NCBI GenBank assembly: GCA_964015645.1
Contig: CAXHHS010000015.1
Location: 1-21,045 of the forward strand
Length of the DNA: 21,045 nucleotides
From: an uncultured bacterium
GTDB lineage: Bacteria > Calditrichota > Calditrichia > RBG-13-44-9 > J075
Reading direction: 5' to 3'
Position numbers and translations under genes: made by a program. The notes beneath the pieces were generated by a model. That model saw nothing but the letters and a program-made list of their open reading frames with translations. It ran no database searches and had not been told where the DNA came from. Shown here one piece after another: positions 1,167 through 17,151 of this stretch (positions are counted from its first letter, which is position 1; every line of letters starts with the position of its first letter).

Positions 1167-1379
1167 AAGCTCGGTTGTTCATTTCGGATTATCGATGGCT
1201 TCTCATCATAATAAAATAACCGCTTTTATTCTTATTCCTTGACACAGCTAAAGGATTAGCTTAGCTTGATTAACCTTTTTAGGAATTCCAGCCTGCTCAA
1301 GATTAATCTCTCACCAGTCTAGAATAACTCAAAAGTCAATTAATTTATATTTATATTTTTATTTAAAGGAGTAACAGTA

Positions 1380-1592
1380 ATGTCAGACCGAGTAAACGGA
1401 GTTGTAAAGTGGTTTAACGCCAGTAAAGGTTATGGTTTTATTTCAAACAGTGAAGGTGAAGATCTATTTGTTCATTTTAGCGCTATTCGTGAGGATGGTG
1501 GTTTTCGTTCCCTGGAAGAAGGGCAGAAAGTGGAATTTACGATTGGAGAAGGTGAGAAAGGTCCTCACGCTCAAGATGTAATCACACTGTAG
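1380..1592 (+). CDS. csp: Cold-shock protein, CspA family (single cold-shock domain, 70 aa)
   Basis: [21 protein letters not shown]...DLFVHFSAI: canonical RNP1 (KGYGFI) and RNP2 (VFVHF-like) motifs of the cold-shock domain. Strong RBS AAGGAG 7 nt upstream. A long AT-rich 5' leader (1167-1379) is typical of csp genes. Confidence 0.95.
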
Positions 1593-1703
1593 TTTATAAA
1601 AATATCGGGTAGATCAAAAAGAGAGTAGGTCATGTATGATACCTCTTTTCATTAAAGTTCAAAAACCCAAAAGTTGAGTAAACCAATACCGGTTTAAACA
1701 GAA

Positions 1704-1736
1704 AAGGCGACACTCACTGGTGTCGCCTTTTTTATT
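1704..1736 (+). terminator. Rho-independent terminator downstream of csp
   Basis: GGCGACAC-tcactg-GTGTCGCC: perfect 8-bp GC-rich stem (1706-1713 / 1720-1727) followed by TTTTTTATT. Confidence 0.8.
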
Positions 1737-1766
1737 GGACTCTAAATAATTTGAAAGGGCAACAGA

Positions 1767-2057
1767 ATGAATATTTATATTGGAAATTTATCGCAAGAAG
1801 TTAAAGAGGAAGATTTACGTGAAGCCTTTTCGGCATTCGGAAGAGTGGAATCTGTTAATATAATTAAAGATAAGTTTACTGCCGTATCAAAGGGATTTGG
1901 TTTTGTAGAAATGGAGGCTAAATCGGAAGCTCAAGCAGCAATGAAGGAGTTAGATGGCAGCGAATTAAAAGGAAATAATATTGTTGTAAATGAAGCCCGC
2001 CCACGTTCTGATAAACGGAGAGGTGGAGGAAACAGAGGAGGGGGTGGGCGTTGGTAA
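1767..2057 (+). CDS. RRM-type (RNP-1/RNP-2) RNA-binding protein with a Gly/Arg-rich C-terminal tail
   Basis: MNIYIGNL (RNP-2-like) and KGFGFVEM (RNP-1) motifs. C-terminus RRGGGNRGGGGRW. Typical bacterial Rbp-type glycine-rich RNA-binding protein. Confidence 0.9.
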   Translation: MNIYIGNLSQEVKEEDLREAFSAFGRVESVNIIKDKFTAVSKGFGFVEMEAKSEAQAAMKELDGSELKGNNIVVNEARPRSDKRRGGGNRGGGGRW

Positions 2058-2092
2058 TGATTTTTCCTTATTACCTGTAAAGAGAAAACGCC

Positions 2093-2425
2093 ATGAAAAT
2101 TAAAATTAACGGCATTTGGGCAACTAAGGAGGTATTCCTTGATGGTAAGCTGCTAACCCCCGGGGAAAGCCTTAAAATACATCATCATAGTCAGAGGTTT
2201 TCCTGGGGGAATAAAGGGCCCGCGTCAGAGCAATTGGCATTAGCGATACTTCTTGAGTGCACTCCGAAAGAAATAGCAATTTCTATGTACCAGGATTTTC
2301 AATCGCATATTATAGCGCAGCTTCCGAAGGCGGATTTTAACATCAATTTGAATGTAAATAAGACAGATAACATAGCTGAATTAATGAACGGAAAACTGCC
2401 CAATAATATGGATATCGGGTGGTAA
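2093..2425 (+). CDS. Hypothetical protein (110 aa)
   Basis: Clean ORF with no recognisable motif. Codon usage is consistent with its neighbours. Confidence 0.4.
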   Translation: MKIKINGIWATKEVFLDGKLLTPGESLKIHHHSQRFSWGNKGPASEQLALAILLECTPKEIAISMYQDFQSHIIAQLPKADFNINLNVNKTDNIAELMNGKLPNNMDIGW

Positions 2426-2509
2426 AATTTTATCCATGCCATAATTTACAGCTTTGAAAGTATCTGGATTATCCAAAAAAGTTATATAATGTGAGCCTAA
2501 GTATAAACA

Positions 2510-2776
2510 ATGAATTGGATCAACCGGGTAAAACTATTAAAAAATCGGCTCTTTGATCCAGCTGTAAAAAGATCGGTTGTGATTGAGGCGCTGATTGCTG
2601 AAGAGACAGTAAAAACCATACTGGTAAATTATAAAGATCAAACCGTATGGCTGCAAAAATCGTTAGTAATGTTTAACCAGCATGAAAAAAATAAGGCTAC
2701 TATCACAATTCCTTTCTGGTTATTTGCTCGCAAATTCCCTAAGCTAACCAATAAATCTGTAAAAAATAGTAAGTAA
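2510..2776 (+). CDS. Hypothetical protein (88 aa)
   Basis: ORF only. A TATAAT hexamer sits at 2485-2490 upstream. No recognisable domain. Confidence 0.3.
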   Translation: MNWINRVKLLKNRLFDPAVKRSVVIEALIAEETVKTILVNYKDQTVWLQKSLVMFNQHEKNKATITIPFWLFARKFPKLTNKSVKNSK

Positions 2777-2814
2777 TATATTTCATAGAATATTCTTCTT
2801 TAGAATGAGGAGAA

Positions 2815-3051
2815 GTGATGAAAGAATTCATAGAGCATATTGTTAAACAATTAGTAGATAAACCGGGTGATGTTCAAATAGCGGAAGTAAAAGGCGAACG
2901 TGTAACAGTGTATGAATTACGTGTGGGAACAGGTGATATCGGAAAAGTGATCGGTAAAAGAGGTCAAACGGCAGCCGCTATTCGTTTTCTTTTAAACGCA
3001 GCATCCGCAGCAAAAAATGGAAGGCGCAGCATCCTCGAAATTCTTGAGTAA
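2815..3051 (+). CDS. KH-domain RNA-binding protein (UPF0109 / YlqC-like), paralog 1
   Basis: 78 aa with VIGKRGQTAAAIRFLL: the GXXG loop (GKRG) of a type-II KH domain. Same architecture as the second copy at 9030-9389. RBS GAGGAG upstream. Confidence 0.85.
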   Translation: MMKEFIEHIVKQLVDKPGDVQIAEVKGERVTVYELRVGTGDIGKVIGKRGQTAAAIRFLLNAASAAKNGRRSILEILE

Positions 3052-4586: not shown

Positions 4587-5435
4587 GTGATCAGAAGTTT
4601 TGACAACCGCGCAAACCAATCTTTAGAAAAATACCTTCAAGAAATTGGAGAAGTTCCCCTATTAACCCCGGAAGAAGAAATTAAACTGGCACAGCGAATC
4701 AAACAGGGCGATCAGCAGGCATTGCATAAATTAATCGAGTCGAATCTTCTTTTTGTGGTAAGTGTGGCGAAAGTGTATCAAAACAAAGGACTTTCTTTCG
4801 GAGATTTAATTAATGAAGGCAACCTGGGATTGATGAAGGCTGCAAAGCGGTTCGACGAAACCCGGGGATTCAAATTTATTTCTTATGCCGTTTGGTGGAT
4901 TCGCCAGGGAATTTTGCAGGCGTTGGCGGACCATCCGCGAGTCGTACGCCTCCCACTGAATCGCGTGGGCGCACTTTATAAGATTGGAAAAGCCTACTCT
5001 TCGCTGGAACAAGAGATTGAACGAGAGCCAACCGCCAGCGAAATTGCGGAGCAACTGGATATGAAAGATACTGAAGTAACGGATACCTTGCGAGTTTCCG
5101 GGCGGCATGTATCTGTGGATGCTCCTTTTAGTAGCCGCGAAGATAGCCGTTTGCTTGATGTTATTGAAAATAATCATCAACCACCGCCGGATTCGGAATT
5201 AGTCAATGATTCCTTAAGAGTTGAAATAGAACGTGCGCTCATAACGTTAACAAAGCGCGAAGCAGAGATAGTACGGATGTATTATGGCCTGGGATATGAG
5301 AGTTCCCAGACGTTAGAGGAAATCGGTGATCGCTTTAATTTAACCCGGGAACGGATACGGCAAATTAAAGAGAAAGCGCTTCGGCGATTGCGCCATGCGT
5401 CCCGCAGCAGAGCTTTACGCGCATTTTTAGATTGA
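4587..5435 (+). CDS. Sigma-70 family sigma factor, RpoD/RpoS-like (regions 1.2 to 4.2, 282 aa). GTG start.
   Basis: Region 2 [59 protein letters not shown] closely matches RpoD/RpoS region 2.1-2.4. Region 4.2 [36 protein letters not shown] precedes the GTG. The gene starts 23 nt after the rpoN stop. Confidence 0.85.
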
Positions 5436-5477
5436 TTTGCAAAAATGCGGAGCCGCTTTGTTCCGAGGTAACCTTAT

Positions 5478-6134
5478 ATGAAACAGCCTATTCACGTATT
5501 TATTGTTGACGACAATCGTTTGCTCCGTGAGGGTCTGGTTTCCATGCTGGCAGAGCAAGAAGATCTCATGGTCGTCGGCGCGGCGGCAAGTGGACGCAAG
5601 GCTTTGGAGCAAATCCGGGAGTTACGCCCGGAGGTGGCGCTTATAGACATTGGCATGCCGGAGAAGGGTGGGATTGAAGTAACCCAGGCCTTGCACCAGG
5701 ATATGCCGGAGGTCAAAGTGATTATCCTCGGTATGCCTGACTTGACAGATGAGATCATGGCCTGTATTGAGGCCGGGGCTGCCGGATACGTGCTAAAAGA
5801 AGCCTCATTCGATTATCTCGTTGAAACGATTCGATCGGCGAATCGCGGTGAATCATTCTGCTCTCCCCGCATGGCAGCTTCGTTGTTTTCCCGTGTCGCA
5901 GAGTTAGCAGGAGATCGAATACCACAAAGTTCCGTCAAACTGACACCGCGCGAGGTGGAAATTATTAACAAGATTGCCGAAGGGTTGTCTAACAAGGAAA
6001 TTGCCCAACGGCTCTCCATCGAAGTGCAAACGGTAAAAAATCACATCCATAATATTCTTGACAAGCTGCAATTGCATAACCGCCTGGAAGCGGTACAATA
6101 TGCCCGTGAAAGAAACCTGCTGAGAAAGAAATAA
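5478..6134 (+). CDS. Two-component response regulator, NarL/FixJ (LuxR-type HTH) family
   Basis: Receiver domain with acidic pocket VFIVDDN, phospho-acceptor LIDIGMP and a conserved Lys (YVLKE). C-terminal LuxR HTH (LTPREVEIINKIAEGLSNKEIAQRLSIEVQTVKNHIHNILDKL). Confidence 0.9.
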   Translation: MKQPIHVFIVDDNRLLREGLVSMLAEQEDLMVVGAAASGRKALEQIRELRPEVALIDIGMPEKGGIEVTQALHQDMPEVKVIILGMPDLTDEIMACIEAGAAGYVLKEASFDYLVETIRSANRGESFCSPRMAASLFSRVAELAGDRIPQSSVKLTPREVEIINKIAEGLSNKEIAQRLSIEVQTVKNHIHNILDKLQLHNRLEAVQYARERNLLRKK

Positions 6135-6184
6135 TAGCAGTACTAGTACTTCACCCTCCTAAAACCTCATGAATGACCATCTCC

Positions 6185-6271
6185 GGAGTAGTCCTTCCCG
6201 TAGACCATAATTGAACCTTCCGGTCTATTGTGTCGCCGTTCTAATTTGCTCATATTAAAATGGTTCACTCC
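6185..6271 (+). repeat. Direct repeat, copy A (~87 bp). About 90% identical to copy B at 6665-6751.
   Basis: ggagtagtccttcccgTAGACCataattgaaccttccGGTCTAttgtgtcgccgttctaatttgctcatattaaaatggttcactcc. Contains an internal 6-bp inverted repeat TAGACC...GGTCTA. Confidence 0.8.
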
Positions 6272-6434
6272 AGAAATGGACGCACGGTTAAGTGCGAGGT
6301 TCCAAAAGCTTATTTCAAGGGAAGGACTTATGATGATGGGGATGGGCCTCACATTTTAGAATTTGCTTTATCAGTTTTTGCCCTAATTAAATAAGCTAAT
6401 TGTAAAATTAATATGAGGCTTCAAGGAGGAGCCA

Positions 6435-6671
6435 TTGATGTGCAAGAAACCACTATCGAAGAAGTTGTTAGAGAGTAATCCGTCGTTGATTCGAAACTAC
6501 CAGGGAGTGCATCCCAACCGATTAACATTTGTTGAATTCACAGACACTTTGTCTCACTTGAGACGATTATTGGAAATTGCTCAAACTTCTCCCAAAATTC
6601 ATGGGGACCATATCCAGCCGTTAGAATCAACAATACGAAAATTTCAAAAGTTTACACCCCAAAAGGAGTAG
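6435..6671 (+). CDS. Hypothetical small protein (78 aa) located between the two direct repeats
   Basis: Good RBS (AAGGAGGAG, 6 nt spacer) before the ATG. No recognisable motif. The stop codon TAG lies inside repeat copy B. Confidence 0.35.
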   Translation: MMCKKPLSKKLLESNPSLIRNYQGVHPNRLTFVEFTDTLSHLRRLLEIAQTSPKIHGDHIQPLESTIRKFQKFTPQKE

Positions 6672-6751
6672 TCCTTTCCATAGACCATAATTGAACCTTC
6701 AGGTCTATTGTGTCGCTGTTCTAAATTGCTCATGATAAAAGGGTTCACTTG
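6665..6751 (+). repeat. Direct repeat, copy B (~87 bp)
   Basis: ggagtagtcctttccaTAGACCataattgaaccttcaGGTCTAttgtgtcgctgttctaaattgctcatgataaaagggttcact. About 8 mismatches versus copy A. The copies are 480 bp apart. Confidence 0.8.
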
Positions 6752-6877
6752 AATAGCAATTGAACTCACCATGGGAACGATTTTGCCCGGTTATTATCAT
6801 CGCTCCGAAACCGGTAATGGCGGAATTTAGGGAACATGGCGTGCAGACGCTTGTTCAGGAGAAAAGGCGACAAGTTT

Positions 6878-7234
6878 ATGAAAAAAATCAAAATATTGTT
6901 ATCGAGCCGGCCAAAGTTGTTGTCAGAAGTGATTAGAAATTTGATTGAGCATCAGCCGGATATGGAGGTGGTGGGTGAAGTGATTGACCCTATCCAACTT
7001 CTGGGAGCCGCCAGGGCGATGGCCGTGGATGTGGCCATTGTCACCCCACTGGAATCGAACGGGGAACCCAAAATATGCCGTCATTTGCTCGCAGAGTATC
7101 CATCTCTAAAAATCATAACGCTCTCGAAAAAAGGCGAAGCCGCTTACTTGTACCAATCGGGGGTTCCCAGGCTGCCTATCGATGAACCCTCCTCACAATC
7201 AGTACTTGGTACTATCCGGGAGGCCCTGGGATAA
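6878..7234 (+). CDS. Receiver-like (pseudo-receiver) domain protein, stand-alone, lacking the phospho-acceptor residues
   Basis: MKKIKILLSSRPKLL...MEVVGEVIDPIQLL...VDVAIVTPLE aligns to the CheY-like fold of the neighbouring regulator. The acidic pocket DD is replaced by SS. The phospho-acceptor Asp position (LIDIGMP in the neighbour) reads AIVTPLE. The ORF track starts at 6836, but the ATG at 6878 directly preceding MKKIKIL is the more likely start. Confidence 0.55.
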   Translation: MKKIKILLSSRPKLLSEVIRNLIEHQPDMEVVGEVIDPIQLLGAARAMAVDVAIVTPLESNGEPKICRHLLAEYPSLKIITLSKKGEAAYLYQSGVPRLPIDEPSSQSVLGTIREALG

Positions 7235-7413
7235 GTCGCTGAATATCTTGGAAGTAAATGATGGTATTAAAAAGACTAATAAGTAGGTGGACATATCTAT
7301 TTCTTAATGAAAGTTTATTGTTTTTTAAGAGCTTAGAGAAAATTAAATATCAAAATATTTTAGAACACTTACTTAAGATAAATTTTCGCTTACTAAACGA
7401 AAGGGATTATAAA

Positions 7414-7539
7414 ATGGGCGACAAAGGCAAGAAAGACCGGGAAAAGAGCCGCAAGCAAAAATCAAAAAAGAAGAATGACAAAGCGAATAAAGCTAAAAAG
7501 AAACAGGAAAAAAATCCTAAAGATACCCTGGGAGGATAA
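7414..7539 (+). CDS. Small, highly basic Lys-rich protein (41 aa)
   Basis: MGDKGKKDREKSRKQKSKKKNDKANKAKKKQEKNPKDTLGG. RBS AAGGGA upstream. The 5' part of the annotated 93-aa ORF (7258-7413) is AT-rich, low-complexity and probably non-coding. Could be a nucleic-acid-binding micro-protein. Confidence 0.3.
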   Translation: MGDKGKKDREKSRKQKSKKKNDKANKAKKKQEKNPKDTLGG

Positions 7540-11955: not shown

Positions 11956-12846
11956 ATGATCTTCATATTAGCAGTACTCATTAGCATAGCGGCCTTTTTT
12001 GTGTGGCGAAGCGCCGCGGGGAAGGTAAAACAAAACAACGCTGCATTCCAGCCCGTTGGCGTCGGAAGTCTTCTCGCCATGGGCGCGTTCGGAATTCTTG
12101 CGCTGATCCAGTGTTTCACTCAAGTTCCCGCGGGACACGTTGGCGTGGTAGATTTTTTCGGCATCGTGTCTGAGAGGACGCTTCCATCCGGAATCAATTT
12201 GGTGAATCCGCTGGCGCGGGTCATCAAATTCTCCATCCAGACCAAAGAACATAAGGAAACAATGGAAGTGCTCTCACGTGAAGGACTCACCATCGGATTG
12301 GAGATAAGCGCGCTCTACCGGCTCAATCCGGACTCTGCAGCTCGCGTTTACAAAACCGTGGCCGGCGGCGATTACGAAACGATTATTCTCATCCCGCAAT
12401 TCCGCTCTATCAGCCGCGCAGTCACGGCAAGTTTCCAGGCCAGTGCGCTTTATTCAACCGAACGCGACCAGCTTGGCATGGCAATTCAGGAAGAGCTTGC
12501 CAGAATCGTTGCCCCACGCGGCGTAACGATTGAAACGACGCCGCTGCGCAATGTCGCGCTGCCGGTTCAGCTTACCGAAGCGATTGAACAAAAACAGAAA
12601 GCGGATCAGGAAAGCCAGCGGATGGAATTCATCCTGACGAAAGAAAAACAGGAAGCGGACCGGAAACGGATTGAAGCAAAAGGTATCGCTGATTTCCAGA
12701 CGATTGTAGCCGCCGGCATCAGCGAACAATTACTCCGCTGGAAAGGAATCGAAGCCACCGAGAAACTTGCCAGCTCAACAAACACCAAAGTGATCATCGT
12801 CGGCGCGGGAAAAGACGGGCTGCCGATCATTATGGATACGAAATAG
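11956..12846 (+). CDS. SPFH / band-7 (prohibitin/HflC-like) membrane protein
   Basis: N-terminal TM helix, then VPAGHVGVVDFFG...TLPSGINLVNPLARV, a typical SPFH domain. Coiled-coil-rich C-terminus (EAIEQKQKADQESQRMEF...). Confidence 0.85.
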   Translation: MIFILAVLISIAAFFVWRSAAGKVKQNNAAFQPVGVGSLLAMGAFGILALIQCFTQVPAGHVGVVDFFGIVSERTLPSGINLVNPLARVIKFSIQTKEHKETMEVLSREGLTIGLEISALYRLNPDSAARVYKTVAGGDYETIILIPQFRSISRAVTASFQASALYSTERDQLGMAIQEELARIVAPRGVTIETTPLRNVALPVQLTEAIEQKQKADQESQRMEFILTKEKQEADRKRIEAKGIADFQTIVAAGISEQLLRWKGIEATEKLASSTNTKVIIVGAGKDGLPIIMDTK

Positions 12847-12949
12847 GCAGTCAACTCGGCTTGAAAGGAGTTTGGAGCACAACATCTTTTATTAGTATCA
12901 AACTTTAAGTCTCGTGATTTTAACAACTTCCCTCATCATCCCACCGATA

Positions 12950-12987
12950 GGTGCTGAAGTATTTGTTTTACTTCAGCACCGTTATTT
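12950..12987 (+). terminator. Hairpin downstream of the SPFH gene (candidate intrinsic terminator)
   Basis: GGTGCTGAAGT-atttgtttt-ACTTCAGCACC: perfect 11-bp stem followed by gttattt. Confidence 0.5.
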
Positions 12988-13126
12988 AAGTGTGTATCGC
13001 TACCTCATTGAAACCGATTCGGACCTGACAGCACAGAAAGTATAATCTTGGAACATACTTTTCGAGGGATTGGGCAAAAAACCCCATAATGGATACTAAA
13101 TAATCAATCAATTAAAGAGGTAACTC

Positions 13127-14221
13127 ATGAAAGCAAAAGCATTCGTATATAGTGAAAATGAATTTGGAAAGATAGATGGTAAGGTTGCAAACGGGCTTGC
13201 CAGGCACTCCGAAAAGTATGATGTCCTTGGTATTATTGATAGCTCAAAGAAAGGTCTTGACGCAGGAGAATATCTTGATGGAATAAAAAATGGAATCCCG
13301 GTATTCGAAAGTATTGATGATGCCATCGAGAACCTGGGTTTTGTTCCGGAATATTTCATTTACGGCATTGCGCCACTCGCTTCATTTCTTGACAAGAAAC
13401 AGAGAGAGATAATCTTCCATGCTATGAAAAAGGGGATGAATATTGTAAACGGGCTACCGGAATTTTTCACCGAGGATAAAGAATTTATGAAAAAGGCGCG
13501 TGAGTATGGCGTCCAAATCTATGATATAAGAAAAGCTCCCCAGAGAAAGGACCTGCATAATTTCTCAGGACGTATCCTTGAAGTCAAAACTCCGGTAATC
13601 ACTGTACTTGGTACAGATTGCGCTGTTGGCAAACGAACAACCGCGGTAAATCTCGTTGACGCCTTGAAACTGGAGGGACTGAACACAGCATTTATAGCAA
13701 CGGGGCAAACTGGAATTCTCCAGGGTTCAAAATATGGTATCGCAGTAGATGTTTTAACTTCTGGTTTTGCAACCGGGGAGGTTGAAAATGCAATTCTACA
13801 AGCCTATGAAAGGGAGCACCCGGACATTATCATCGTCGAAGGACAGGGTGCCCTGAGCCATCCTGCGTTTACCTCCTCAAGTGCAATAATAAGAGGAGCA
13901 ATGCCCAATGCAATTATCCTCCAGCACCCGCCAAATAGAAAAAACCATTGCGATTATCCCAATATACCCATGCCCACACTTGAAAGTGAAATAGAACTAA
14001 TAGAGGTATTCTCTAAATCGAGGGTAATTGCCATCACACTCAACCACGAAGATATGACCGATGATGAACTTGAAGACACAATTGTGGCGTATGAATACAA
14101 ATATGAACTACCGACTACAGACGTCTTAAAAAAAGGATGTGATAAACTAGTTAAAGAGTTATTCACGGTATTTCCGAAACTGCAAAAAACAGTTGCCTTG
14201 CGATGCCAACCCCAAGAATAG
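13127..14221 (+). CDS. DUF1611-family P-loop protein (Rossmann-like N-domain plus Walker-A NTPase-like C-domain)
   Basis: 364 aa. Walker-A-like VLGTDCAVGKRTTAVNL followed by ATGQTG. Overall layout matches DUF1611_N + DUF1611. RBS AAAGAGG. AT-rich coding sequence. Its stop overlaps the next gene's start by 19 nt. Confidence 0.65.
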   Translation: MKAKAFVYSENEFGKIDGKVANGLARHSEKYDVLGIIDSSKKGLDAGEYLDGIKNGIPVFESIDDAIENLGFVPEYFIYGIAPLASFLDKKQREIIFHAMKKGMNIVNGLPEFFTEDKEFMKKAREYGVQIYDIRKAPQRKDLHNFSGRILEVKTPVITVLGTDCAVGKRTTAVNLVDALKLEGLNTAFIATGQTGILQGSKYGIAVDVLTSGFATGEVENAILQAYEREHPDIIIVEGQGALSHPAFTSSSAIIRGAMPNAIILQHPPNRKNHCDYPNIPMPTLESEIELIEVFSKSRVIAITLNHEDMTDDELEDTIVAYEYKYELPTTDVLKKGCDKLVKELFTVFPKLQKTVALRCQPQE

Positions 14222-15939
14222 AGATCGATCTTGAGAAAATTGCGCATAATGCCAAAACGCTAAAGGAACTATATGGCTCAAAGGGCATTGATGTTATCGG
14301 TGTTACAAAAGTGGTTTGCGGAAATCCTGATATCGCTGATGTTTTAGTAAAAAACGGAATAAGCATACTTGCTGATTCAAAGATTGCCAATATCAGAAGG
14401 ATGCGTAACGCAGGTATACAAGCAGAGTTCCTCCTACTGAGAACACCTTTCCTAAGCCAGGCCGAAGCTGTGGTGAAATATGCAGATATTAGTCTGAATT
14501 CAGAAATTTCAGTCGTTAAAAGACTCTCAAAATTTGCCCTAGAGTATAATGCCACACATAAAATAATATTAATGGTGGAGCTGGGGGACTTAAGAGAAGG
14601 GCTAATGCCCTCGGATATAGATAACGCCGTTGAACAGGTAGTAGGGTTGGAAGGAATTAAGCTTGTAGGTTTAGGAACAAATCTAGCCTGTTTTGGAGGG
14701 ATCAAACCTGATGAAGAGAAAATGGGATACTTTTCTTCAATTGCTCGAGCTATTGAAGAAAAGCACGGGCTGACATTAGAATTTGTTTCCGGTGGAAACT
14801 CTGCTAATTATAACTGGTTCATGTCCACTAAGGATGTCGGAAAAATCAATAACCTACGACTTGGTGAATCGATCTATTTGGGATGTGAAACCCTCTATAG
14901 AAAACCCATCCCAGGTCTATTCACAGATGCGTTTACAATGGTGGCAGAAGTTATTGAATCAAAAATAAAGCCATCTTTACCTTGTGGAGATGTTTGTCAA
15001 GATGCATTTGGAAATGTTCCAGAGTTTCAGGACCTTGGCTATGCAAAAAGAGCTATATTGGGAGTTGGATTGCAGGATGTTATGGTTTCCGGCCTGACTC
15101 CCAGGTCGGATATTTACATCCTTGGGGCCAGCAGTGACCATATCATTGTTAACACAAAGAAAATAGAATTAAAAGTAGGAAACGAATTAGAGTTTGATCT
15201 AAATTATGGGGCCTTGCTCTCTGTAATGACATCACCCTATGTAATAAAAAACTCATGTACTTATATGAATGCTCAAGAATATTGCGAAATGGTTGAACAA
15301 AAATACCGCCGTCATAAATTACTTCTTCCAACCGTGGCAATTAAAGAAAACAATTCTCGATTAATTAGTTTAAAAGAATCTGATTTTAATTTAGTATACG
15401 AACCATCAATTAATAAAAACTACAAATATATGGTTAGAGAAGCAGTCTATGAAAAAATAGGACGAATAAGCAAACTTTTAGACATACAAGATAAAAAATT
15501 AATCATTCGATCTGTATGGAGATCTTTTGAACATCAACTGCTTTTATGGGAAAATAGAGTTGATTTTTTACGCAAAGAATTTCCAAATAAACAATTAGAA
15601 GAAATTCAAGAACTCGTTTCATATTTCATTGCCCCGGAAAAAAAATCCATGCACACCACGGGAGGGGCTGTAGATGCTTTAATATATGATTTGAAAAATG
15701 ATTGTGTTATGGATTTTGGAACCAATGACGGGTTAAAAATAGATCTTAATGACAAATGCTACCCATACCATCCTTTTATTTCGCCGCAAGCAAAGAAGAA
15801 CAGAAAATTGCTAATAAATCTATTTGAAAAAGAAGATTTTGTGGTTGATATAAAAGAATACTGGCACTTTGATTACGGTAATGCTTGTTGGGCATTAGAA
15901 AAAGGAAAAGAATACTCAATATATGGCATCACTATGTAA
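14203..15939 (+). CDS. Fusion protein: fold-type-III PLP amino-acid racemase-like domain (alanine/ornithine racemase family, N-terminal ~350 aa) plus VanX/DdpX-like D-Ala-D-Ala dipeptidase domain (M15D, C-terminal ~200 aa)
   Basis: N-terminus IEIDLEKIAHNAKTLKEL...GVTKVVCGNPDIADVL (candidate PLP-Lys in GVTK) and ...VELGDLREG...GLGTNLACFGG resemble the alanine-racemase N-terminal TIM barrel. C-terminus RSVWRSFEHQ, SMHTTGGAVD (SxHxxGxAxD zinc site) and EYWHFDY (ExxH) match the VanX signature motifs. Single uninterrupted ORF. Confidence 0.75.
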   Translation: MPTPRIEIDLEKIAHNAKTLKELYGSKGIDVIGVTKVVCGNPDIADVLVKNGISILADSKIANIRRMRNAGIQAEFLLLRTPFLSQAEAVVKYADISLNSEISVVKRLSKFALEYNATHKIILMVELGDLREGLMPSDIDNAVEQVVGLEGIKLVGLGTNLACFGGIKPDEEKMGYFSSIARAIEEKHGLTLEFVSGGNSANYNWFMSTKDVGKINNLRLGESIYLGCETLYRKPIPGLFTDAFTMVAEVIESKIKPSLPCGDVCQDAFGNVPEFQDLGYAKRAILGVGLQDVMVSGLTPRSDIYILGASSDHIIVNTKKIELKVGNELEFDLNYGALLSVMTSPYVIKNSCTYMNAQEYCEMVEQKYRRHKLLLPTVAIKENNSRLISLKESDFNLVYEPSINKNYKYMVREAVYEKIGRISKLLDIQDKKLIIRSVWRSFEHQLLLWENRVDFLRKEFPNKQLEEIQELVSYFIAPEKKSMHTTGGAVDALIYDLKNDCVMDFGTNDGLKIDLNDKCYPYHPFISPQAKKNRKLLINLFEKEDFVVDIKEYWHFDYGNACWALEKGKEYSIYGITM

Positions 15940-16170
15940 TTATCACGATTTAATCTGACAATTTTGTGGTTAATAGGCTATTTAGTTTAGGAACAGGAAG
16001 AATAATTTTGCTGGAGCCAAAATCACTTTCTTGTTTTACAAGCGACGCAGCGCTATTCTGATATGTAATCGCAATTTTTCGGCAGATAAACCAACAATAT
16101 TCAGTATTTTATACAGGTTCGGATTGCAGCGATATTAATATATCAAACTTAATGAAATAAGGAGCTTTCG

Positions 16171-17151
16171 ATGAAATACGTCAACTTTGGCAACACCGGT
16201 TTAAAAGTCTCCCAACTCTGCCTGGGCATGATGACCTTTGGTGATAAAAAATGGCGCGAATGGGTTTTGGAAGAGAAAGAATCGCGGGATGTTATCAAAG
16301 CAGCGTTGGAGATGGGTTTCAATTTTTTTGACACAGCTAACATGTATTCCATCGGCGTTAGCGAAGAGATTACCGGGCGCGCGTTAAAGGATTTCGCCAA
16401 ACGCGATGAAGTGGTAATCGCTACCAAAGTCTATTTCCCGATGGGCGACAAGCCCAACCAGGGCGGCCTTTCCCGCAAACATATTTTTTCTGCCGTAGAT
16501 GATTCGCTAAAACGGTTGGGAACGGATTATATCGACCTTTATCAAATTCATCGCCTGGACCACGAAACACCAATGGAAGAAACGCTGGAAGCCTTGCACG
16601 ATTTGGTGAAGGCAGGAAAAGTTCGTTATTTGGGCGCCTCTAGCATGTACGCCTGGCAGTTTGCCAAAGCGCTTTATATGGCAAAACTAAACGGTTGGCG
16701 GCGATTTGTTAGCATGCAAAACCATTACAACCTGATTTACCGGGAAGAGGAACGCGAAATGATCCCGCTGTGCCGCTCGGAAGGGGTTGCCCTGATTCCC
16801 TGGAGTCCCCTCGCCCGGGGGTTTTTAGCCGGAAACCGCACTCGAAAGGAATATGGCACAACTTCCCGCGCGAAAACCGATACTATCGCCCAAAAATTTT
16901 ACTACGTAGACCAGGATTTTGACATCCAGGATCGGGTAATCGAATTAGCGGAAAAGAAAAATGTTAAACCGGCACAAATCGCACTTGCCTGGGTGCTGCA
17001 CAAACCGGGTATTACCAGCCCCATTATCGGTGCCAGAACCATAACGCAGTTAAAAGAATTGGTCGCTGCCGGCAAAATCGAACTCGACAGTGAAGAAATA
17101 TCATCATTGGAAGCCCCTTATCAACCCCGTCCTGTTTTGGGACATAGTTAA
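16171..17151 (+). CDS. Aldo/keto reductase family oxidoreductase
   Basis: GNTGLKVSQLCLGMMTFG, FFDTANMY and GASSMYAWQ: AKR signatures with the catalytic D/Y/K/H context. RBS AAGGAG. Confidence 0.9.
   Translation: MKYVNFGNTGLKVSQLCLGMMTFGDKKWREWVLEEKESRDVIKAALEMGFNFFDTANMYSIGVSEEITGRALKDFAKRDEVVIATKVYFPMGDKPNQGGLSRKHIFSAVDDSLKRLGTDYIDLYQIHRLDHETPMEETLEALHDLVKAGKVRYLGASSMYAWQFAKALYMAKLNGWRRFVSMQNHYNLIYREEEREMIPLCRSEGVALIPWSPLARGFLAGNRTRKEYGTTSRAKTDTIAQKFYYVDQDFDIQDRVIELAEKKNVKPAQIALAWVLHKPGITSPIIGARTITQLKELVAAGKIELDSEEISSLEAPYQPRPVLGHS

Follow-up and report, generated by a model that had tools for sequence, protein, structure and literature searches.

The window examined in this study, 21,045 nucleotides (nt) of contig CAXHHS010000015.1 from an uncultured Calditrichota bacterium (assembly GCA_964015645.1), contains a 578-residue open reading frame (ORF; 14203..15939, + strand) with a racemase-like N-terminal half (N-half) and a VanX-like C-terminal half (C-half), a two-domain make-up already described in a first-pass annotation of the stretch. 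The guanine-plus-cytosine (GC) content falls by 9 points between the two halves. With a probability that we put at roughly 0.78, this gene arose by fusion of two adjacent genes, the GC step was inherited from them and is large here through recent transfer of a whole module, and the product would serve a salvage function. The ancestral state would have been a gene for an Orr-like, pyridoxal phosphate (PLP)-dependent amino-acid racemase and a gene for a VanX-like M15 zinc dipeptidase of ~225 residues, adjacent and translationally coupled. In the clade of the window, a single-nucleotide insertion or deletion just upstream of an ATGA overlap would have put the TGA out of frame, so that the ORF now runs through a five-residue linker (15250-15264) and on past the former start codon (15265). 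The GC step would then be the old difference in composition between two genes, carried along with the gene: the dipeptidase gene would be more AT-rich than its racemase partner family-wide, fused or not, with an AT-ending synonymous codon bias (~4 points) common to the nearest relatives of the window. Its size here would reflect a three-part module that changed hosts recently, with a composition unadjusted to a genome of ~44% GC. The first-pass annotation had read the same break as a dipeptidase cassette from a low-GC donor, recently fused onto a resident racemase gene.

The fusion seam and the history of the two halves

A scan of one genome per species gave 193 loci related to the ORF, and we inspected the best 80, mapping the two halves separately in order to class each locus. 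Both halves were observed within one ORF in 48 of these loci and as two adjacent genes in 26, while 6 carried the racemase only. In the 26 split loci the separate racemase and dipeptidase genes lay on the same strand and in the same order, broken exactly at the seam, and three of them (L033, L053, L070) resemble frameshifts or assembly errors. A junction comparison of 30 loci found that in the split forms the stop codon comes 2-7 codons past K349 and the second gene begins at the counterpart of M355, the junction DNA encoding ...S-P-Y-I-I-K-K-Y-K-stop with an ATG 0-7 nt later or with an ATGA stop/start overlap. The window runs through the same junction in a single frame (...K349-N-S-C-T-Y-M355-N-A-Q-E). 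From this comparison, the linker N350-S-C-T-Y354 (15250..15264, +) derives from what used to be the 3' end of the racemase gene plus the intergenic spacer, and the ATG of M355 (15265..15267, +), in frame within the fused ORF, is the retained start codon of the ancestral dipeptidase gene, as the standalone relatives also indicate. One nucleotide of length across the junction separates the fused forms in the window and L082 from the split form in L060.

An exhaustive search with the C-half over 1.84 billion representatives at 50% identity returned one fused cluster (P0121), followed by standalone proteins of ~225 residues, whose residue 1 aligned to query residue 5, which is M355. On these alignments, the seam is the former boundary between two adjacent genes and a true fusion point. 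Because 26 of the 80 loci are split at the seam and standalone relatives surround the single fused 50% cluster, the fused ORF is not an ancient multidomain architecture, and in this respect the first-pass annotation was right. Its view that the fusion is recent did not hold, since full-length fusions formed >120 clusters (90% level) at 70-90% identity and the 48 fused genome loci extended down to 55-62% identity, with cultured Aquimarina species among them (55-67% per half). Comparison among the loci suggests at least three independent fusions. As in known Rosetta-stone fusions of adjacent operon genes by stop-codon loss, the split orthologues keep order and adjacency, the seam lies at the old stop/start and the internal start is retained; judged on these features the gene is a textbook case, notable only for its visible compositional step.

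Separate comparisons of the two halves, which had been expected to show incongruent neighbours, gave the same three nearest loci in the same order, with N/C identities of 90/90% for L081, 86/81% for L060 and 84/80% for L082; this was the outcome that the first-pass annotation had set down in advance as speaking against its own proposal. Pairwise distances of the N-half and C-half were correlated (r=0.87, 74 loci), and mean divergence was 0.311 for the N-half versus 0.326 for the C-half. The fraction of identical codons at conserved residues was likewise similar for the two halves, with N/C values of 0.81/0.81 in L081, 0.74/0.77 in L082 and 0.74/0.71 in L060, the values for L081 and L082 standing clear of chance values of 0.40 and 0.53. 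Codon identity with relatives (0.64-0.81) was well above chance (0.38-0.54), and synonymous sites are therefore far from saturated. By all of these measures the two halves share one history, and with shared neighbours and equal amino-acid and synonymous divergence a separate low-GC donor for the dipeptidase finds no support.

Fused linkers varied by clade: the main clade has KKTSDHMNAQE, Aquimarina has KNIITPIGAKE and L055 has KNTINFNECKA. On the neighbour-joining tree the fused state is interspersed with the split one, and split Tenacibaculum loci nest beside fused Psychroserpens (compare L054 and L056 with L055 and the Aquimarina clade). We also observed an A-rich run before the seam, which is A6 in the window (15230-15262) and A8 in split L060 (about 7040-7063). 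The L060 assembly may be a long-read one, in which case its split might stem from a homopolymer error. We also considered programmed frameshifting at this run and rejected it, as the split loci had no consistent slippery site or frame relation.

Size, position and sources of the GC step

The GC break within the single ORF was confirmed. The racemase part (14203-15249) had 40.1% GC, with 34.6% at third codon positions (GC3), and the dipeptidase part (15250-15939) had about 31.0% GC and a GC3 of ~24%, the lowest of any gene-sized segment in the window. The decrease was observed at all three codon positions (chi-square p=1.9e-4 for all positions, p=0.01 for third positions). The gain in log-likelihood (lnL) from placing a change point was 9.9 units, which was equalled by none of 500 codon shuffles. 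We also split 90 unrelated long ORFs, taken from the window and from 83 related contigs, at the same relative position; only one of these controls had a step of >=9 points (standard deviation 2.8 points), placing the ORF at about the 99th percentile. An example given in the first-pass annotation, 15301-15480 at roughly 30% GC, measured 27.8%, and the AT-rich string quoted there begins at 15361. The contrast with the surroundings had been overstated: in place of 43-50% GC for the racemase part and neighbouring genes, we measured the 40.1% given above for the racemase part, 41.9% for the upstream gene and 48.1% for the downstream gene, a contrast across the ORF of ~9 points rather than 13-20. 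The window is patchy overall, with genes ranging from 30% to 54% GC.

The placement of the break on the domain junction was correct only in part. The break is near the seam, and 15250, where it had been put, is exactly the first linker codon, but the maximum-likelihood change point within the ORF (41.3% to 31.0% GC) lies at 15139 (2-lnL support 15109-15244), 110-125 nt upstream of the seam and not on it. A two-boundary likelihood scan of 13127-17151 gave 15136..16186 as the best-fitting low-GC segment (31.5% versus 43.8%). This segment takes in the final ~38 codons of the racemase part, continues over the linker and the dipeptidase half and includes a 231-nt downstream spacer.

A difference in the same direction was observed throughout the family. 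The N-half was more GC-rich than the C-half in 46 of 52 fused loci (mean +3.0 points) and in 21 of 23 split loci (mean +3.1), and the offset is independent of fusion. Among the closest relatives, N/C GC contents were 39.0/32.9 in L081 (90% identical, with a flank of 47-50% GC depending on its delimitation), 39.6/30.9 in L082 (82% identical, flank 31% GC) and 38.7/32.3 in split L060. The change points of the 12 relatives tested fell at codons 313-392, all <=45 codons from the seam, with the weakest of them, in L035, barely supported at a likelihood gain of 1.1. The offset vanished in Aquimarina genomes of ~32% GC, where everything is near the floor.

A portion of the step follows from the proteins themselves. 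When GC was predicted from amino acids with window-wide codon usage, the N-half came to 44.5% and the C-half to 39.2%, and a prediction for the C-half from the codon usage of the N-half gave 35.1%; amino-acid content thus predicts 5.0-5.3 of the 9 points. FYMINK residues made up 30.9% of the N-half versus 37.7% of the C-half, and GARP residues 22.9% versus 14.9%. About 5 of the 9 points are protein composition and ~4 are synonymous. One could read the whole step in this way, as the mark of a dipeptidase rich in Lys, Asn, Ile, Tyr and Phe that carries no evolutionary signal, and the family-wide offset and its disappearance in Aquimarina agree with this reading as well. We nevertheless consider it unlikely, because the C-half prefers AT-ending codons with the amino acid held fixed (Mantel-Haenszel test stratified by amino acid, odds ratio 1.74, z=2.77, p=0.006), because its GC3 is 24% versus 35% and because a step of this size is so rare among the control ORFs. 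Similar Mantel-Haenszel values were obtained in the close relatives L082, L060, L001 and L081, and across the family 11 loci were significantly positive and 1 was significantly negative.

The position of the change point bears on another explanation, in which homologous recombination replaced the 3' part of the module (about 15139-16186) with the corresponding piece from the module of a lower-GC host. A change point ~120 nt inside the racemase half would be expected from such an event, and the low GC content does run on, tract-like, through the spacer to the next gene. However, the change point of L081 lies at the same codon (313), and L082, L001, L060, L016 and L009 have steps of similar size <=45 codons from the seam, so that any such event would predate the clade. 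Moreover, the two halves give one and the same order of relatives and equal codon-level identity, and downstream spacers are AT-rich in most genomes anyway. We therefore hold a mosaic allele to be less probable still than an effect of protein composition.

The three-part module and its transfer

The first member of the module is a DUF1611/DgcN-like gene of 364 residues and 41.9% GC (13127..14221, +), whose end overlaps the start of the ORF by 19 nt. It matched Pfam DUF1611 with 227 bits and DUF1611_N with 75 bits, and scored 162 bits with the NCBIfam DgcN model, under the cut-off of 480. In 69 of 77 related loci the racemase had a DUF1611 gene directly upstream of it, in the same orientation. 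A terminator-like hairpin with a 12-bp stem and a T-rich tail (12950..12980, +), the only long stem in a scan whose matches were at chance level, lies 3' of the upstream Band7 gene and is probably where the preceding transcription unit ends. None of the genes neighbouring the module in the window recurred in 83 related loci, save for matches of a generic RRM protein (1767-2057). The racemase is thus not a resident gene that received a dipeptidase, as had been proposed, but travels with the DUF1611 gene and the dipeptidase.

The composition of the module also differed from that of its surroundings. GC3 values for the DUF1611 gene, N-half and C-half were 38/35/24 in the window versus 48 in flanking ORFs and 35/35/23 in L082 versus 24, while four other loci (L003, L015, L019, L061) had values of 34-54 over all three parts versus 67-71. 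The low GC is therefore not confined to an acquired domain, as the first-pass annotation had it: the step recurs in L081, L082, L001, L060, L016 and L009, and the rest of the module is below host GC3 too. With copies on contigs that carry the labels Ignavibacteriales, Bacteroidales, Zixibacteria and others, the module shared 78-86% identity, and for a flanking argininosuccinate lyase (ArgH) the best named matches, in Cytophagales and Sphingobacteriales, were at 69-70%, pointing to Bacteroidota of that kind. Across the loci compared, module composition is decoupled from the host, its context is variable and its identity is high between distant taxa. The horizontally moved unit looks to be the whole set of DUF1611, racemase and dipeptidase, not the dipeptidase alone, and recent transfer in one piece would be the simplest reading, in which case the composition of the module has not yet adjusted to the host. 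A repeat search of 12600-16400 gave short two-copy chance matches only, none of them flanking the module, and no mobility genes were found.

These results leave little room for a recent graft of a low-GC dipeptidase onto a resident racemase, which we now regard as highly improbable. It is true that the 9-point step near the seam is real, that the seam is a genuine fusion point and that the C-half has the lowest GC3 of the gene-sized segments. Against the graft, the same fused gene with the same composition of ~40/31 occurs in relatives that are 82-90% identical and have flanks of 31% and 47-50% GC, the two halves have identical nearest neighbours and equal divergence, the offset is also present in split relatives, and the racemase and DUF1611 genes are themselves foreign here by composition and context. 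The least probable of the explanations is an embedded element (internal promoter, target of a silencing or nucleoid protein, or RNA) that keeps GC low: the C-half does follow host GC less than the N-half (slope 0.35 versus 0.51) and the internal ATG at 15265 is retained, but there is no obvious element behind the synonymous part because promoter- and terminator-like matches in 12800-16300 were at chance level (13 versus 10.3 expected and 3 versus 2.8 expected), an Rfam scan of the whole window gave no match, and the C-half showed no lower synonymous divergence than the N-half, which speaks against an overlapping constraint.

Genes downstream of the module differed even between the closest relatives, being an aldo-keto reductase in the window, a GCS2 glutamate-cysteine-ligase-like gene in L081 (2881-3996) and a PLP-dependent (PALP) enzyme fused to a GNAT acetyltransferase in L082 (12079-13443).

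Standalone racemases were observed on five contigs binned as Heimdallarchaeota (L062, L063, L065, L066, L071), 79-81% identical to the N-half of the window and with neither DUF1611 nor dipeptidase. In four of these (L063, L065, L066, L071; 79-80% identical) a gene for a D-Ala-D-Ala-ligase-like ATP-grasp protein (about 4983-5990) immediately precedes the racemase (6001-7047); L062, which has no upstream sequence, is outside this count. The four loci tie the racemase clade to D,D-dipeptide chemistry, because a Ddl-like gene adjoins it in each. The racemases of the Heimdallarchaeota bins suggest that the gene crossed between bacteria and archaea (unless the contigs are mis-binned) and that the module has a biosynthetic counterpart. 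A further locus (L069, 6001-7065), on a contig labelled Proteobacteria, carries DUF1611 and the racemase only; the tail of its racemase and the sequence downstream (KKYVNYL-stop, then IHSFKH...) resemble the Heimdallarchaeota loci, and it looks like an intermediate architecture.

Predicted enzymes, function and related systems

The racemase half (residues 1-349; 14203..15249, +) is predicted to be a fold-type III PLP enzyme by Pfam, NCBIfam, PDB and fold searches. It matched Pfam Ala_racemase_N (PF01168) over residues 8-226 with 92.1 bits (gathering cut-off 24.1) and NCBIfam racem_Orr (NF040742) full-length over residues 4-350 with 401.1 bits; as this is under the curated cut-off of 480, the half is Orr-like by profile match and not assignable as Orr. 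The putative PLP lysine K36 (14308-14310, +), within a G-V-T-K motif, was invariant in 36 homologues; its assignment is motif-based rather than structure-based, the HMMER alignment being offset by 3 residues from Lys39 of Alr. A PDB sequence search gave distant matches only (alanine racemase at 1e-7, VanX 1r44 at E=0.03). We examined an AlphaFold model built with 36 homologues (mean pLDDT 69.8, falling to <50 around both zinc motifs and the linker), which was used for the racemase fold only and not for domain packing or the peptidase site. In Foldseek searches the top matches of the racemase half were alanine racemases (E down to 4e-16), with resemblance also to VanTg, lysine racemase and YhfX, and the modelled N-half confirmed the predicted alanine-racemase-type fold. 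A near-perfect palindrome of 17+17 nt without a spacer (CTTTTCTTCAATTGCTC/GAGCTATTGAAGAAAAG) was observed at 14730-14763, within the racemase coding region.

The dipeptidase half (residues 355-578 and stop codon; 15265..15939, +) is a predicted VanX-like M15 zinc enzyme. It matched Pfam Peptidase_M15 (PF01427) over residues 410-562 with 34.4 bits (cut-off 27), an annotation that is present, precomputed, on nearly all homologues, and it did not reach the cut-offs of the VanX model (NF033115; 26.3 bits versus 320) or the DdpX model (NF007557; 35.6 bits versus 176). Its motifs S482xH484xxGxxD491 (15646-15675, +) and E552xxH555 (15856-15867, +) align with the same motifs of VanX 1r44, and S482, H484, D491, E552 and H555, which include the zinc ligands His-Asp-His and the catalytic Glu, were invariant in 36 homologues. 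Both active sites are intact as judged from their residues. An N-terminal extension of ~55 residues (355-410, 15265-15432) precedes the M15 match; it contains the invariant residues Y360, C361, V364 and E365, and a helix is predicted there with low confidence.

The two halves and their partner gene share features with several known systems. VanX and DdpX (MEROPS M15D, PF01427, 1r44) are of similar length (~200-225 residues) and have alignable SxHxxGxAxD and ExxH motifs, but the dipeptidase half is only a distant relative of them, carries the ~55-residue N-terminal segment and is fused or coupled to a racemase; the locus has neither a van-type ligase nor a van-type regulator. The racemase half shares a full-length match, the PLP lysine and the fold with Orr, Alr, VanT, lysine racemase and YhfX. 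Unlike Orr, it has no ornithine-fermentation genes nearby, its partners being DUF1611 and an M15 peptidase (a Ddl-like ligase in the Heimdallarchaeota bins). Gene sets of the VanC type comprise the vanC ligase, the vanXY D,D-peptidase and the vanT serine racemase. They similarly place an enzyme of the alanine-racemase fold beside an M15 D,D-peptidase acting on a pool of D-amino-acid dipeptides, whereas the window locus lacks a ligase, a two-component regulator and a membrane domain and belongs to a Gram-negative host, so that catabolism or salvage is a likelier role than cell-wall reprogramming. The MurF-alanine racemase fusion (NF008897), a weak match in the NCBIfam search, also joins a racemase fold to an enzyme that handles D-Ala-D-Ala, but its partner is a ligase rather than a peptidase, its domain order is reversed and its role is biosynthetic. 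The upstream gene and DgcN are paralogues within the DUF1611 superfamily, although by its score the gene is not DgcN. Its partner in the window is a PLP racemase needing a free amino group, and not the DgcA with which DgcN is paired. DgcN has been described as the pivotal gene in an irreversible D-to-L racemisation pathway for acidic D-amino acids (PMC12363236). The fused architecture is already in databases under automatic names, e.g. 'predicted amino acid racemase/D-alanyl-D-alanine dipeptidase', and a full-text literature search on the DUF1611/racemase/dipeptidase module found no paper describing it. The module is conserved, widespread and apparently uncharacterised.

A functional sketch can be offered tentatively, at somewhat under even odds. 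The M15 half would hydrolyse a dipeptide containing a D-amino acid, e.g. D-Ala-D-Ala, and the racemase half would turn the released D-amino acid into its L-form for assimilation, with the DUF1611 partner in an accessory role; fusion would keep the dipeptidase and racemase steps together.

Several observations weigh against the account of an old gene fusion with an inherited step and recent transfer of the whole module. Two formerly separate genes predict a change at the seam, where the likelihood deficit is 2.8 units. The 9.0-point step of the window is the largest of all loci examined, and with a family mean of only 3 points something specific to the clade must add to the general offset. The synonymous component is not explained by relaxed constraint, and faster evolution of the C-half was rejected as the source of its low GC on the equal divergence of the two halves. 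The trees were built by neighbour joining from identity distances and carry no support values, the inspection covered the best 80 of 193 genome matches, and the unverified taxon labels of contigs from metagenome-assembled genomes can be wrong. On the functional side, the enzyme activities are read from motifs and gene context, the AlphaFold model falls below a pLDDT of 50 at the zinc motifs, the racemase scores under the Orr cut-off and the peptidase far under those of VanX and DdpX.

We also considered a broader proposal, which we think somewhat unlikely. The module would be an undescribed, horizontally spread catabolic set for D-amino-acid dipeptides from peptidoglycan debris in sediment and marine bacteria, switched several times between fused and split states by single-nucleotide changes at the ATGA overlap. 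The AT-rich codons of the dipeptidase would reflect a nucleotide-level constraint, and the Heimdallarchaeota racemase with its Ddl-like ligase would be the biosynthetic mirror image of the module.

As this case shows, where GC changes sharply within a gene at a domain boundary, the step can be the legacy of two former genes and need not be the scar of a recent graft, and because such a step can be inherited from separate genes, composition alone is a weak tool for dating fusions. The module probably acts on D-amino-acid dipeptides, a part of the recalcitrant organic nitrogen of sediments and the deep sea (PMC12363236). With its natural fused and split variants, the module lends itself to testing whether a two-step pathway gains from fusion.

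Further low-GC patches (30-37%) were observed in the window at 1200-3000 and 7258-7539, holding small ORFs. Those in the first patch encode the RRM RNA-binding protein noted above (1767-2057), a DUF6166 protein (2093-2425) and a product with no family match (2510-2776). The second patch holds one ORF of 30% GC (7258-7539), also with no family match.

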